Origin: a virus
Strand: one strand, 5' to 3'
Virus record (IMG/VR): IMGVR_UViG_3300008108_000036
DNA: 64,000 bases
The position numbers and the translations under genes are program-made. A model generated the notes under the pieces. It saw only the letters and a program-made list of their open reading frames with translations. It was not told the origin of the DNA and made no database searches. Below, one piece after another: positions 3,959-21,501 of the stretch (the first letter of the stretch is position 1; each line of letters begins with the position of its first letter).

Positions 3959-4410
3959 GGGGGTGCCCTGGTTTCGACATATAGTTGAAACTAAAAGCGC
4001 ATGTAGAGGTTAATCGATGGCCTCTTTAAAAATCGATTGAACACTAAACGCAGAAGACAATACTTCTGATCTCTTAGCTGAAGCTGATTACATCTTCAAC
4101 AACGCTGATGAGTTTCTCATCGACGTTGAAGAAGCTTGTGCTCTCGAAGCCTAAGAGCCTAATAGAGGATCCTCTAAATCTATTTTGAAACGCAGAGGTT
4201 TTGATGAACTGTTAGAGATCATAGAAAAACTGATACAGAGGTAGTACAAGACCTCTCACTTGTGCAGGCAGACATAAAAATCGGTTGATACAACCATGCA
4301 GCCTTTTGTCTTTGTCACCGTAAGGTGGCTGAAATGTTGAATGTATCCAAACGTGTGAAGACCTTTTAGCTTAGGTTATATGGACAGGGGTTCGATTCCC
4401 CTCATCTCCA
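3959..4410 (+). ncRNA. ssrA: tmRNA (SsrA), one-piece, about 452 nt
   Basis: 5' GGGGGTGCCCTGGTTTCGAC; 3' GGACAGGGGTTCGATTCCCCTCATCTCCA; acceptor stem with G3.U; pk1 (GAGG/CCTC, AATCGAT/ATCGATT); resume codon after CTAAAC; CCA not encoded. Confidence 0.95.
4050..4154 (+). other. tmRNA tag ORF (A)AEDNTSDLLAEADYIFNNADEFLIDVEEACALEA*
   Basis: GCA resume codon after TAAAC, downstream of pk1; 34 codons to TAA. Confidence 0.8.
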
Positions 4411-4461
4411 ATAAAATAAAAATTGTTGAAAAACTCATAATTCAAATGTTAATCAAGTCCT

Positions 4462-17425: not shown

Positions 17426-17842
17426 CTATTTAAAGTTCTTAGGAACACGACCCAAACGGCAATTTATTATTCCGTTATAATAATCTTCTTTTAATAAAAC
17501 GTCTTCTTGGATTTGCCTTTTTATTTCTTTATATCCTAATTCGAATTTAGAAAAACACCACTCTAAAATTACAAAGCTAAAGTTTTCTTTGCCGTATTTT
17601 TTAATATCTTCATTAAGCTCTTTAGATGACCCAGTATATGTTTTCCAGTCCGATTCTTTTGTGTCGAGACGTTTGCGCTTTTTTCCTTTAAGTGGTTTTC
17701 TTTTTACTTTAAACCTGCATTGCTTCTTACCAATGTACTTTTTTGGACAAACTAAGGCATTATTGGTAATTTCATAAATAAACCCGAATGCATCTTCACT
17801 AAAGCTTAAATTCTCCGCTAAAATCCAATGTCCTAAATCCAT
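17426..17842 (-). CDS. GIY-YIG-like putative endonuclease
   Basis: GFIYEITN...KYIGKK, ESDWKTYTGSS, YYNGII. Confidence 0.75.
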   Translation of the reverse strand: MDLGHWILAENLSFSEDAFGFIYEITNNALVCPKKYIGKKQCRFKVKRKPLKGKKRKRLDTKESDWKTYTGSSKELNEDIKKYGKENFSFVILEWCFSKFELGYKEIKRQIQEDVLLKEDYYNGIINCRLGRVPKNFK

Positions 17843-17843
17843 T

Positions 17844-18107
17844 TTACTTTTTTCTGCGTTTTTTTCTGCTTTTTTTCATTCCATAACGAGTTATTACTCC
17901 TCCGTATATACCATAAGGAATTCTAGCATCATCTTTGGCGTAATTGTCACCACTAAAAGCTGTAGATGTTGAATCTATTCCATCGCCAAACGACGAACTT
18001 GTTGCACCCCCCTCAGAATCCTCATTAATGCTGTTCGTTTTGGTATAACAATCGTTCGATATAAAAGAAAGAGCTGCATTATACGCTTCTTTAAAGCTTT
18101 TTGTCAT
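17844..18107 (-). CDS. small late protein, candidate internal virion protein
   Basis: MTKSFKEAY...SINE leader; basic tail. Confidence 0.55.
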   Translation of the reverse strand: MTKSFKEAYNAALSFISNDCYTKTNSINEDSEGGATSSSFGDGIDSTSTAFSGDNYAKDDARIPYGIYGGVITRYGMKKSRKKRRKK

Positions 18108-18252: not shown

Positions 18253-18780
18253 CTAATACCAAGACGGCTTAGAGCGCTTTGTCCAAGTTGCAAAAGCTTT
18301 ATCTAACCGAATGTATTGTTTGTATTTGTCTATAGTAGAAAGTTGATCAAAACCAGCAATTTTTCTGCACTTAGATTCTAAGTTAATAGCGATTGCAAAG
18401 GGAGTCAATTCGCTTTTTTTACAATGCTCTGTTTTATCTACATTGCTTTTGCACCATTCTATAAATGATTTGGTAAAATGCTCGTTAGAAGTTGTCCATC
18501 GATAGGTTCGCTCATTAAACATTTCTAAAGCATGATCACAAAGCCACAAAAAGTTTGATGTTGACTCTCTTGTCCATACAGCACATGGATGATTGTAATA
18601 CCCTTTGCCAGATTTACGTGGGGATCCTTTTTTAGTCAAAGGAGCTGACAGTAATGTTTGATTAGAAAAGCAATGTTGAAGCAAAATTGCTGATTCAATT
18701 TGCATTTTAGACCTACAATGCTGATCACAAAGCTCTTGAGCTGATATCACTGGATCGTTATTGGTGCAAAAGATATTCAT
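18253..18780 (-). CDS. pyrimidine-dimer DNA glycosylase/endonuclease V-like protein
   Basis: MNIF...DP...A..LCDQH..KMQIESA.LL, NHPCAVWTRES..NF.WL. Confidence 0.75.
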   Translation of the reverse strand: MNIFCTNNDPVISAQELCDQHCRSKMQIESAILLQHCFSNQTLLSAPLTKKGSPRKSGKGYYNHPCAVWTRESTSNFLWLCDHALEMFNERTYRWTTSNEHFTKSFIEWCKSNVDKTEHCKKSELTPFAIAINLESKCRKIAGFDQLSTIDKYKQYIRLDKAFATWTKRSKPSWY

Positions 18781-18855
18781 TGGCTAAAGTTTCAAACTAA
18801 AAATTAAAAAAGACAACAAAATGTTGCTTTTTTTAAAAAATAACATAATTTAAAA

Positions 18856-19183
18856 CAGTCGCTGTTAGTGCCAGCCAAAGCGTTTCAACGCGGGTCTTCG
18901 TTGGGAGATAAATAAACAGGAGTCAGCGATTAATAAATAAAAACACTACTCGATGTGCGCTTTATGCGTGACCGTTGTTTGGCCATTGCCAGGACCGCTC
19001 AAGCCAGCCCTTACAGAACAACCGAGGGGGCATATTTTTTGCTTTGCAAAATTTTGAAGCTTGTTAACCCGACTGAGACTCGTTTTATACGGAATTTCAA
19101 AGACAGGAGGTTATCCCAATAATGGGGGACCTCCCTCCTTCAATCTGAATAACCGGAACTTAAAGACCTTTTAAGCCTTTTTT
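18856..19183 (+). ncRNA. candidate novel structured ncRNA upstream of uvsY
   Basis: No ORF >=60 aa; GC-richer than flanks; many helices needing G.U pairs on the + strand; promoter TTGCTT-N16-TAATTT at 18824-18851; U-tract at the 3' end. Confidence 0.55.
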
Positions 19184-19222
19184 GCTGTTGAATAACCTAT
19201 TTTGACGTATATCATTAACGAT

Positions 19223-19630
19223 ATGGCTGATGCATCTAATCTTTTTCAAGAATATCATGAAAAAATTGAGACGTTTTTGAAATTTGATGAATTAAACATT
19301 AAAGACTCACAAATGGCACTACCATCCGTTAGACATTATTGGGTAGGTCGGCTAATGTATCACAAACAACAAATTATAAAACTCAAAAAAGCAAAAGAAA
19401 AAGCAAGCAAAACCATTAAAGCAAAATTAGAAGAAGAATCGCCAGTTACTCTCAGCATTAAAACTATCAGCGAATCCATAGCAACGAATGAAATTATCTT
19501 AAAAATTGATGATGAAATAGCAAATAACGAGTTTTTGGTAGAATATCTCAGCAAGGTCGAAGCTAACTTTAGAGACACTCAATACGGAATGACTAATCTT
19601 ACTAAAATAATTACATTAGAAACGACATGA
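19223..19630 (+). CDS. uvsY: recombination mediator UvsY
   Basis: LKFDELNI...LPSVRHYW; helical; upstream of uvsW; ATG 19223 follows TTGAAT-N16-TATCAT. Confidence 0.75.
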   Translation: MADASNLFQEYHEKIETFLKFDELNIKDSQMALPSVRHYWVGRLMYHKQQIIKLKKAKEKASKTIKAKLEEESPVTLSIKTISESIATNEIILKIDDEIANNEFLVEYLSKVEANFRDTQYGMTNLTKIITLETT

Positions 19631-20052
19631 AGATTTCTGCTGGTATTATTTTTTTATTTGACAACAAAGTACTTCTTTGTCATCCTACAAACGCTTCTTA
19701 TAATAACAGCTTTAGTTTTCCAAAAGGACAAGTTGATGAGGGAGAAACGTTTGAAGAAACAGCAATAAGAGAATGCAAGGAAGAAATTGGAATAAGTTTA
19801 TATAATCCCAAATTTGCATCCAAATACGAAGTAGAATACTATAATAAAAACAAAAAAAAGATAGTTAAAAAAGTAATATTATTTTTATTAAAAATTCATT
19901 CTTTATCGGAAATAGGACTGACGAATTTAGTCGTACCGAAAACCCAATTGCAATTAGATGAAATTGATTGGGCCGGGTTTTTAACAAAACAAGAAAGTGA
20001 ACTTAAAATTTTTTGGCGTTTTCATGAAGTTTTAAATCAAGTTTTAAGATAA
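19627..20052 (+). CDS. NUDIX hydrolase
   Basis: Nudix box PKGQVDEGETFEETAIRECKEEIG. Confidence 0.92.
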   Translation: MKISAGIIFLFDNKVLLCHPTNASYNNSFSFPKGQVDEGETFEETAIRECKEEIGISLYNPKFASKYEVEYYNKNKKKIVKKVILFLLKIHSLSEIGLTNLVVPKTQLQLDEIDWAGFLTKQESELKIFWRFHEVLNQVLR

Positions 20053-20061
20053 AAATTTTAC

Positions 20062-21501
20062 ATGAATATAACATTTGATTTTGATACAGTTTCCAGAAAA
20101 CCTAAAATCATATCCGAATTTTTGCCTCAAATTAGAGAGCATTTTTCAGTAGAAGACAAAGCTTTATTATTTTTAAGAAAAAGAACTGGCAGAAACTTAC
20201 CCGTAAGAAAATATGCTATTACAAATAAAGGAATGTATGATTTGCCTTTTACTGGAACTATTTGTCAAGAACTTAAGTCAAAATTTCCTTCTGCTAAAAT
20301 CCATTTTACTGATGAGCTAGTAATCCGATTATCAAATAAAAGTATAAACGAAGAGTTAGTCACACTCAACTTTCCACCTAGAGATTATCAAAAATCTTCT
20401 GCCGAAACAGCATTACAAAAAGGAAGAGGGGTGGTAGTTCTTCCAACTTCAGCAGGCAAAACACTTGTAATTGCTTTAATAACTTCAACCATTTTAAAAC
20501 ACAGTAGTGATAACGTACTAATTTTAGTTCCAGACATTCAATTAGTTCAACAAACATACAAAGATTTTTTAGAATACGGAATTGACGATTCGTTGATTTC
20601 TAGATGGACTGGCTCTCATGAATTTACTAACTCAAAAATAGTAATAGCAAACAATCAAATACTTTTATCAGAAAAACAAGACCAAAACGTTCTTTCATCG
20701 TTTTCGACGATTATTGTTGATGAGTGTCACAAATTCGCTACAGCTGAAAAAATTTCAAAGCTTATTAAGAATTTGAAGTGTGAAAGAATATTTGGATTTA
20801 CAGGTTCTTTGCCAGAATCGAAATTTGACGTTTGGTCTATAAACAGAATTTTTGGTTCTATTATCTTTCATAAGAAATCTATAGATCTTAGACAGGATAA
20901 ATATATTTCAAAAGTGCGAGTAGTTTCTTTAGAGCTTAACTATAAAGACATACCACAGTTTTCAAAACCATCCGTTAACGACCCAACAGCAGGATATGAA
21001 GAAGAAATCACATGGCTTCATACCAACTTGTACAGAAATTCTATAATATCGAAACTAATAAATAAACTTGAAACTAACACTTTAATATTGGTTGACCGTA
21101 TAGTACACGGAGAGCATCTTTTGCAGTTTTTACAAGATCACACTAATAAAGAAATATATTTTATACAAGGATCTGTTGAATTGGAAGAAAGGGAGAACAT
21201 GAGAAAGCTTATGGAAGAAAAGTCTGGAGTTGTGTGCATAGCAATTTCTAAAATATTTTCTACAGGTATTTCTATTAAAAATTTACATAATATAATATTT
21301 GCAGCAATAGGAAAAGCAAGAATTAAAATAATTCAATCAATTGGAAGAAGTTTGAGATTGCATCACACAAAAGAAATAGCCACTATATTTGACATAGCAG
21401 ACACATGCTTAATTTACGGAAAGAAGCATTTTGACGAGAGAGTTAGATTATACGAATCCGAGCGCATTCCCGTTGTTTCTTCCACGCATTATGAATCGTA
21501 A
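20062..21501 (+). CDS. uvsW: SF2 DNA helicase UvsW
   Basis: PRDYQ, PTSAGKT, DECH, GFTGS, STGISI, QSIGRSLR. Confidence 0.92.
   Translation: MNITFDFDTVSRKPKIISEFLPQIREHFSVEDKALLFLRKRTGRNLPVRKYAITNKGMYDLPFTGTICQELKSKFPSAKIHFTDELVIRLSNKSINEELVTLNFPPRDYQKSSAETALQKGRGVVVLPTSAGKTLVIALITSTILKHSSDNVLILVPDIQLVQQTYKDFLEYGIDDSLISRWTGSHEFTNSKIVIANNQILLSEKQDQNVLSSFSTIIVDECHKFATAEKISKLIKNLKCERIFGFTGSLPESKFDVWSINRIFGSIIFHKKSIDLRQDKYISKVRVVSLELNYKDIPQFSKPSVNDPTAGYEEEITWLHTNLYRNSIISKLINKLETNTLILVDRIVHGEHLLQFLQDHTNKEIYFIQGSVELEERENMRKLMEEKSGVVCIAISKIFSTGISIKNLHNIIFAAIGKARIKIIQSIGRSLRLHHTKEIATIFDIADTCLIYGKKHFDERVRLYESERIPVVSSTHYES

Follow-up and report, generated by a model that had tools for sequence, protein, structure and literature searches.

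Comparative evidence for a new structured RNA ahead of uvsY-like genes in uncultured T4-like phages

To our knowledge, only a few large, intricately folded RNAs of unassigned function have been described, and past large ornate RNAs have turned out to be ribozymes, cores of ribonucleoproteins (RNPs) or self-assembling architectures. GOLLD and ROOL are large ornate non-coding RNAs that are often borne by phages and whose function is unknown (PMC2864571, PMC5737381, PMC12286853). Here we analyzed an RNA of ~320 nucleotides (nt) encoded ahead of a uvsY-like gene in a 64,000-nt stretch of viral DNA (IMG/VR record IMGVR_UViG_3300008108_000036; this whole stretch is referred to as the window). The original prediction, made from the letters of the window, had described at this site an unannotated, promoter-driven, plus-strand structured RNA of ~300 nt and of no known class, and covariation among 31 homologs, a conserved promoter and the lack of any Rfam or ARAGORN match strongly support this. 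We are highly confident that it is a genuine new structured RNA; judged from its sequence, it is a new family within the phage-encoded structured non-coding RNAs, with no homology to Rfam families.

The UvsW helicase served as the anchor in a search for homologs; motifs were then scanned for in collections of viral, metagenomic and genomic sequence, and a hidden Markov model and later a covariance model were applied. In all, 31 distinct copies of full length (covariance-model scores 280-390 bits) were collected from viral and metagenome contigs. The first three viral contigs, reached through the UvsW anchor, had an intergenic stretch of 75-85% DNA identity beside UvsY proteins that were 69-79% identical, and divergent variants of one helix (P6, as GCUCUU/GGGAGC) were recovered by motif scan. 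By contig name, the sources included a TARA Oceans scaffold, an ENA 'marine metagenome' contig and many Joint Genome Institute samples. A common order was found in all copies: segE (minus strand), a small open reading frame (ORF; minus), the promoter, the RNA (plus) and the uvsY-like gene (plus). The RNA had a mean pairwise identity of 79.5%, compared to 64% for uvsY DNA and 46% at the third codon positions of uvsY; in 97% of pairs the RNA was more conserved than uvsY DNA. Measured by these identities, the RNA is under stronger purifying selection than its neighboring genes.

The structure model comprised 61 base pairs in ~10 helices and was scored both on a MAFFT alignment that was not fitted to the structure and on a second, model-fitted alignment. 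Covariation in homologs, a check that the original prediction had set in advance, was found among the 31 copies: in the MAFFT alignment 30 pairs carried changes on both sides (8-17 in controls) and 92.5% of cells paired, compared to 42-48% when the 3' partners were slid by 1-3 columns. In the model-fitted alignment 93.6% of cells paired compared to 42-50% when slid, and 30 of the 61 pairs changed on both sides compared to 8-14. The covariation score was 0.21, against 0.04-0.07 in controls. Compensatory change is exemplified by UCGCUG/CAGCGA, which becomes UCCCUG/CAGGGA or UCACUG/CAGUGA. P2, P4, P6 and P9 contain conserved G.U pairs that would turn into C.A on the opposite strand, which places the RNA on the plus strand, as had been claimed from G.U pairs in the window. 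The parts of the structure were as follows.

18858-18930, plus strand: Domain 1, a three-way junction of P1, P2/P2a and P3 with the A-rich junction AUAAAUAAACAGGA
18858-18864 and 18924-18930, plus strand: P1, GUCGCUG/CAGCGAU; one pair is GC in 22 copies, AU in 4 and CG in 3
18874-18876 and 18893-18895, plus strand: P2, GCC/GGU; the closing pair is GU in 15, AU in 7, CG in 6 and UG in 1
18880-18882 and 18889-18891, plus strand: P2a hairpin, GCG/CGC, inside P2
18896-18899 and 18904-18907, plus strand: P3, CUUC/GGAG; all 4 pairs change on both sides (e.g. AU 15, CG 13, GC 2, UA 1), 100% paired
18931-18955, plus strand: A-rich single-stranded linker, AUAAAUUAAAAACA in most copies and then invariant CUCGA; columns nearly invariant in alignment A6
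18956-18970, plus strand: P4 hairpin, UGCGC/GCGUG, with two closing G.U/U.G pairs; 3 of 5 pairs change on both sides, 98.7% paired
18974-18979, plus strand: 5' strand of a pseudoknot, GUUGUU, abutting P5; only the last base varies (U or C)
18980-18983 and 18988-18991, plus strand: P5 hairpin, UGGC/GCCA; one pair is GC in 23 and AU in 7, 99.2% paired
19000-19004 and 19059-19063, plus strand: PLR, a long-range helix, CAAGC/GCUUG, enclosing P6 and P7; GC in 27 and AU in 4, 100% paired
19007-19012 and 19026-19031, plus strand: P6, GCCCUU/GGGGGC; CG 24, UA 7 and CG 27, AU 2, UA 1, 100% paired
19017-19022, plus strand: 3' strand of the pseudoknot, AACAAC, in the 13-nt loop of P6
19037-19042 and 19046-19051, plus strand: P7, a variable hairpin, UUUUGC/GCAAAA; five pairs with changes on both sides
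19064-19105, plus strand: ~30 nt that are almost invariant and have no assigned partner (UUAACCCGACUGAGACUCGUUUUAUACGGA), then R1 (ACGGAAUUUCAAAGACA, 19089-19105); invariant columns in 30 sequences
19106-19117 and 19124-19134, plus strand: P9, a long hairpin, GGAGGU..CCC/GGG..ACCUCC, with a variable loop; 99.5% and 99.0% paired
19135-19190, plus strand: 3' region with a conserved C-rich segment CUCCUUCAAUCUGAA, R2 (CCGGAACUUAAAGACC, 19153-19168), the candidate P10 and U6; conserved through CCGGA
19159-19164 and 19170-19175, plus strand: P10, an AT-rich hairpin candidate, CUUAAA/UUUAAG

The strand is fixed in particular by P4, in which U.G was kept in 29 of 31 copies and G.U in 27 of 31, and PLR was confirmed by CAAAC/GUUUG in four divergent copies (loci L164, L165, L178 and L203). 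In P9, three pairs changed on both sides and the inner stem showed changes from C-G to U.G. The predicted pseudoknot GUUGUU/AACAAC was compatible with all 31 sequences, its variable pair being U.G in 17, C-G in 12 and U-A in 2; as the other five pairs do not vary, compatibility falls short of proof, and the pseudoknot is probably real. The helix coordinates given in the original prediction were exact, and most of its helices were retained by covariation or strict compatibility, namely AGUCGCUG/CAGCGAUU (P1), GCGU/ACGC (P2a), UCUUC/GGAGA (P3), UGGC/GCCA (P5), GCCCUU/GGGGGC (P6), UUUUGC/GCAAAA (P7) and GGAGGU/ACCUCC (P9). Its proposed UUGAAG(19054)/CUUCAA(19138) was rejected, because it showed no covariation, had uncompensated breaks in up to 9 sequences per pair and would use a G that is needed for the covarying helix CAAGC/GCUUG.

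Among further candidates, P8 (GGAR/CUCC, extending P9) showed no covariation and scored better in a shifted register, while P10 was 54% paired in the alignment, its arms pairing no better within than across sequences, and had no statistical support. The CUCG of the linker may, tentatively, pair with YGAG at 19073-19076, a compatible pairing in which variation is one-sided. About 120 nt were nearly invariant without a partner, notably UGAAGCUUGUUAACCCGACYGAGACUCGUUUUAUACGGA and GACCUCCCUCCUUC.

Two direct-repeat modules of overall pattern CGGA-N5-9-AAGAY flank P9: R1 (ACGGAR-N5-9-AAGAY) lies just 5' of it and R2 (CCGGAR-N5-9-AAGAY) past the C-rich segment. R1 and R2 from one molecule were more alike than R1 and R2 from different molecules (local alignment scores of 13.5 and 10.2, a difference reached by 0 of 10,000 permutations). 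Both carry CAAUUAAUC in L164, L165 and L203, and both are replaced by AGGAG-containing versions in two divergent copies, L136 and L178. This suggests concerted evolution of R1 and R2, either as two sites for one lineage-specific partner or by gene conversion.

The RNA lies in an ORF-free gap (18781-19222) between a minus-strand gene (18253-18780) and an ATG at 19223. The earlier description of this gap as ORF-free and richer in GC than its surroundings held, as the ORFs inside it are merely chance ORFs of 26-55 amino acids (aa) and GC content is 0.41-0.52 over 18850-19199, compared to 0.24-0.36 in the flanks and 0.33 in the whole window. Chance ORFs of 30-55 aa exist, and a divergent 87-aa ORF starts ~60-70 nt upstream of P1, so that its own promoter may extend into the element on the opposite strand. 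These could be taken to mean that the element is not an RNA at all but the remains of a gene, a gene for a small protein or a site that acts at the DNA level (a divergent promoter or operator, or a single-stranded DNA structure). However, no reading frame was conserved among 30 copies, the longest open stretches differed in strand and frame, and frame-breaking indels were frequent, those of 1, 2, 4 and 5 nt being common. The 30 pairs with compensatory double changes, and conserved G.U wobbles that are strand-specific and weak in DNA, also speak for an RNA, and we regard a non-RNA explanation as extremely improbable. A leader peptide within P9 (GGAGG, ATG and 8 codons) was rejected; its ATG occurred in only ~13 of 30 copies (alignment A6, by eye) and the frames differed.

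In searches with the 4227 models of Rfam 15 in E-value mode, the window and two divergent homologs gave best matches of 9-22 bits against thresholds of 40-208 (E 0.07-10), and these noise matches fell mostly on the AT-rich promoter flank. This covariance-model search, proposed at the outset, thus matched no family, in line with the original prediction. A search of the whole window at Rfam gathering thresholds returned only a transfer-messenger RNA (tmRNA) at 3959-4413, and ARAGORN called no transfer RNA (tRNA) or tmRNA at 18781-19222 and no tRNAs in the window. Nothing came up in full-text literature searches for strings of the core sequence or for an RNA located ahead of uvsY.

A blastn search of the region against 50,697 phage records gave no match, and no cultured phage has the RNA. 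Two motif scans of bacterial and archaeal genomes returned only a phage fragment binned into a metagenome-assembled genome and one chance match, which argues against a host origin. In two more distant relatives (L011 and L013), which share the synteny of segE, ORF, uvsY and uvsW, the locus leaves no space for the RNA and its model gave no match. Three other search routes yielded no copies: the left-hand gene as an anchor was a dead end, its relatives not being syntenic; searching viral contigs directly with the uvsY-like protein gave no confirmed matches; and a scan for the exact P9 motif gave zero matches. Within these surveys, the RNA is restricted to one subclade of uncultured T4-like water phages of ~217 kb. 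A complete relative of 217,182 bp with direct terminal repeats (L049, also G001; IMG/VR 3300046808_001241) holds a single copy of the RNA. The genome of this relative also carries a tmRNA and could act as a reference for the uncultured T4-like clade. Co-occurrence of the RNA with tmRNA was considered and dropped, since tmRNA is also found in a relative without the RNA.

Transcription of the RNA is predicted to begin at the following element.

18824-18851, plus strand: sigma70-type (early) promoter, -35 TTGCTT (18824-18829), 16-nt spacer and -10 TAATTT (18846-18851)

This promoter, proposed in the original prediction as TTGCTT-N16-TAATTT, aligns with an element conserved in ~27 of 31 copies (-35 GTTGACA or GTTGACT, N16, and GAYATT, TAAATT or TAAGCT) that stands at a fixed 35 nt ahead of P1, the window having an aligned variant. 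A consensus promoter scanner made no call on the window's variant because its -10 is weak, and we infer the promoter from its conservation. The predicted +1 (~18857-18859) is within a few nt of the first base of P1. Other signals that had been proposed were not general: besides the window, only two close relatives have the 3' U-tract (U6, 19178-19183), and the two ATAAATA motifs are not kept as TATAAATA in relatives, so that late promoters inside the RNA were discounted.

Between the RNA and uvsY, 10-25 nt past R2, many relatives (L075, L099, L008, L049, L111, L139, L145 and others), although not the window, carry the purine-only stretch AAAGGGGCGGGG, after which come GUAGAU and a long run of T. 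This stretch could pair with CCUCCCUCC of the RNA at 8 of 9 positions.

An RNA that starts at the +1 of a conserved early promoter, on the same strand as the next gene and directly upstream of it, could be a cis-acting leader of the early uvsY-(NUDIX)-uvsW unit, either very large and riboswitch-like, sensing a protein or tRNA, or a processive antitermination RNA akin to HK022 put and Bacillus EAR. These two are cis-acting antitermination RNAs of ~70-120 nt (put ~70 nt) with two or three stem-loops; an element of this type would modify the polymerase that had just transcribed it, so that the downstream recombination and repair genes are expressed. Several features are consistent with a leader. 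No conserved terminator lies between the RNA and the next gene; conservation is high in the 5' part and core but gives way to variation in the 3' part, as in an aptamer with its platform; in the window alone, a weak hairpin and U6 follow R2; and no MotA or AsiA was found in the complete relative, such that delayed genes may need read-through from early promoters.

The regulatory pairings expected of a leader were, however, not conserved. A 3' switch in which R1 or R2 pairs with the 3' arm of P10 was rejected, as R1:tail and R2:tail duplexes were no better within than across sequences (p 0.17 and 0.66). R1 or R2 as an antisense to uvsY mRNA was likewise rejected (p 0.22 and 0.71): R1 19093-19104 is complementary to 19273-19284 (12 bp with one G.U; uvsY codons ~17-21, FLKF) in the window and L007 only, which is probably chance in AT-rich sequence, and the U-tract is not conserved. 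The gene that follows the RNA differs in at least 4 of 31 loci, uvsY being directly next in most, and the same operon is present in close relatives that lack the RNA. At 320 nt and ~10 helices, the RNA is also far larger than put, EAR or most riboswitch aptamers, and no cis-regulatory family of Rfam was matched. We consider a leader the main rival to action in trans but, on this evidence, the less likely of the two.

Our preferred reading, held tentatively and with slightly less than even confidence, is a stable RNA that acts in trans. In this mechanism the gene, of ~320 nt from ~18858 to ~19175 on the plus strand, would be transcribed by host RNA polymerase from the sigma70-type early promoter, starting (+1) where P1 begins. 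The transcript would fold into a 5' three-way junction (P1-P2/P2a-P3) and a core made up of P4, an H-type pseudoknot stacked on P5, PLR around P6 and P7, and the long P9 hairpin, the two parts being joined by ~120 nearly invariant unpaired or junction nt. Released from the early transcript as a stable RNA, it would act in trans early in infection, either as a ribozyme or on a conserved macromolecule of host or phage that it binds, sequesters or scaffolds, with R1 and R2 as paired recognition sites for one partner. We infer that the RNA works in its folded form, not as a DNA site or R-loop.

The arrangement of the loci argues for such an independent RNA. Extra DNA of 0.7-1.2 kb separates the RNA from uvsY in at least four loci (L061, L111, L120 and L131), extra plus-strand genes follow the RNA in these four and in L137 and L136, and insertions between the small ORF and the promoter are present in several loci, the window included. 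The RNA is intact in all loci with downstream or upstream insertions, and this integrity regardless of the following gene favors an independent, trans-acting RNA, as does the existence of sister phages that have the same operon and lack the RNA. The spacer from the RNA to the next start codon (45-90 nt) is variable and unconserved, and no alternative pairing that could gate a terminator, a ribosome site or start codon, or the uvsY message was conserved across homologs; both observations likewise point to action in trans. By analogy, the size and many invariant unpaired bases of the RNA resemble those of RNP or ribozyme RNAs more than those of aptamers.

Several points weigh against action in trans or temper the evidence for it. 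The RNA is predicted from sequence, and its role in trans is postulated. No conserved intrinsic terminator was found that would set the 3' end of the RNA, which may thus simply form the beginning of the uvsY operon mRNA. As expected of a leader, it always lies 45-90 nt upstream of the next plus-strand gene and in the same orientation. The concerted evolution of R1 and R2 could also have come about by gene conversion, with no shared partner involved. On the structure itself, none of 500 shuffles reached any observed measure, but this control ignores phylogeny, which the slid-column control does not. The single-sequence minimum free energy of 18856-19183 was unremarkable and did not surpass that of dinucleotide shuffles (z -0.57 for the plus and -1.23 for the minus strand). 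The original prediction had named such an outcome as one that would refute it, but the comparative evidence overrides this result.

Size, pseudoknot, multi-helix junctions and long invariant unpaired stretches would also suit a self-processing RNA, that is, a new ribozyme whose cleavage or ligation sets the ends of the RNA itself or processes the transcript made early in infection. Large ribozymes such as RNase P and group I introns look like that, being large and pseudoknotted with multi-helix junctions. This possibility is argued from general appearance, however; no Rfam ribozyme (group I and II introns, RNase P, small self-cleavers) was matched, there are no flanking exons and no recognizable cleavage-site logic, and we regard it as improbable.

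A more far-reaching reading, which we offer as a doubtful possibility, is that the RNA founds a new functional class. It would be an RNA machine made by the phage and expressed early, serving as an RNP scaffold, as a decoy for a factor of host defense or translation, or as a ribozyme; its invariant single-stranded core would engage a highly conserved host target, and its two co-evolving 3' modules would bind a lineage-specific phage partner. If true, this would be a host-takeover device built of RNA, not protein.

The original prediction had raised, as its alternative, an origin RNA like that of T4 ori(uvsY). T4 has an origin at the uvsY promoter, and its oriF needs a MotA-type middle promoter and an A+T-rich unwinding element of irrelevant sequence that can be replaced by unrelated unwinding sequences (PMC3016281). 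By this account the promoter transcript would stay on its template as an R-loop and prime leading-strand synthesis, as in T4 ori(uvsY)/oriF. The position of the RNA, upstream of uvsY, near uvsW and at a local point of divergent transcription, fits an origin, and the window's -35 TTGCTT happens to contain the MotA-box core TGCTT; its relatives, however, carry TTGACA at -35, not TGCTT. The transcribed stretch is a local GC maximum (41-52% GC in a 33% GC genome) and more conserved than coding DNA, and its compensatory changes keep intramolecular helices that would compete with an R-loop or persistent RNA-DNA hybrid. Pfam MotA_activ and AsiA were not found in the complete 217-kb relative, in a search run with no positive control genome, and cumulative GC skew showed no inflection at the site, which is weak evidence. 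Taken together, the GC-rich, constrained and self-pairing region, the -35/-10 promoter, the lack of MotA and AsiA matches and the straight skew disfavor an origin RNA, which we consider highly improbable.

The genes around the RNA were assigned by domain and homology searches.

17426-17842, minus strand: SegE-like GIY-YIG endonuclease (Pfam SegE_GIY-YIG, E 3e-29)
17844-18107, minus strand: 87-aa ORF with a basic tail (C-terminal KKSRKKRRKK)
18253-18780, minus strand: 175-aa phrog_624 gene (phrog_624 E 1e-35, its sole family match)
19223-19630, plus strand: divergent uvsY-like gene, 135 aa (tblastn links and Pfam UvsY via relatives)
19627-20052, plus strand: NUDIX hydrolase (domain search)
20062-21501, plus strand: UvsW-like helicase (domain search)

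The 135-aa protein had no direct family match. It was 27-29% identical by tblastn to the proteins of L011 and L013, and two members of alignment A8, which includes those proteins, matched Pfam UvsY PF11056 (best E 2.3e-4). The 'uvsY' label given in the original prediction was thus supported transitively, and 'uvsY-like' appears a reasonable name for the gene. UvsW homologs of cultured T4-like phages are ~31% identical to the helicase of the window. The label 'denV-like' for 18253-18780 found no backing in Pfam, NCBIfam or PDB; the gene matched phrog_624 only. This 175-aa gene is an insertion specific to the window, between the 87-aa ORF and the RNA promoter, and its relatives (62-78% identical) lie in unrelated contexts in viral contigs L001-L005; in ~27 of 30 other RNA-bearing loci the 87-aa ORF directly adjoins the RNA promoter. 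Different insertions occupy the same two junctions flanking the RNA in other loci, making both sides of the RNA insertion hot spots.

In nearly all loci the 87-aa ORF diverges from a point ~20 nt upstream of the -35 element of the RNA, and its basic-tailed product is a candidate RNA-binding partner. The ORF is also present in L013, which lacks the RNA, and its linkage to the RNA is accordingly not strict.

The tmRNA of the window (3959-4413, plus strand) is phage-encoded and was identified by Rfam (RF00023, 111.6 bits, E 9e-43) in agreement with ARAGORN. A Shine-Dalgarno-like motif precedes only 6 of the 67 window ORFs of at least 120 aa, and upstream regions are A/T-rich, so the host probably initiates translation largely without Shine-Dalgarno pairing. 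Against this scarcity, the perfect GGAGGU/ACCUCC helix and the single-stranded CUCCUUC of the RNA stand out.

The comparative support for this RNA is unusually clean for its size, and its distribution is narrow and datable, being confined to one subclade and absent from sister phages with the same synteny. The phages that carry it are abundant, uncultured, T4-like phages of lake and ocean with genomes of ~217 kb, a tmRNA and almost no Shine-Dalgarno sites; given the latter two traits, the RNA may bear on the handling of host translation or RNA metabolism. The 31 sequences and the covariance model make it open to direct testing without a cultured host.

Compared to known systems, the RNA shares with T4 oriF/ori(uvsY) a neighborhood of uvsY and uvsW and a promoter directed towards uvsY. 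It differs in having a sigma70 -35/-10 promoter where oriF has a MotA-box middle promoter, and in a downstream stretch that is GC-rich, sequence-constrained and self-pairing where the unwinding element of oriF is AT-rich and indifferent to sequence. Like put and EAR, which act as folded nascent RNAs, it lies just downstream of an early or operon promoter and has no coding capacity, but with ~320 nt and ~10 helices, no sequence or Rfam similarity, no identified downstream terminators and one copy per genome it departs from both. T-box and cobalamin leaders similarly stand at the 5' end of a transcription unit, are closed by a helix at +1, contain a pseudoknot and have a conserved sensor part ahead of a more variable 3' part, whereas the RNA matches no T-box, cobalamin or other Rfam riboswitch model, has no specifier or T-box sequence and has no demonstrable terminator/antiterminator or sequestering switch. 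Phage tmRNA (~350-450 nt) is, like the RNA, structured, phage-borne, single-copy and pseudoknotted; the RNA lacks a tRNA-like domain and a tag frame, the real tmRNA lies elsewhere (3959-4413), and homologous tmRNAs are found in relatives with and without the RNA. In contrast to GOLLD and ROOL (~580-800 nt), the ~320-nt RNA does not match their Rfam models, is not beside tRNA genes and belongs to one clade of T4-like phages only. In common with them, it is phage-associated, has multiple helices with pseudoknots and many invariant unpaired nt, and was found by comparative analysis only. The obvious functional analogy is with GOLLD and ROOL, which are the closest in kind, as RNAs acting through their own architecture.

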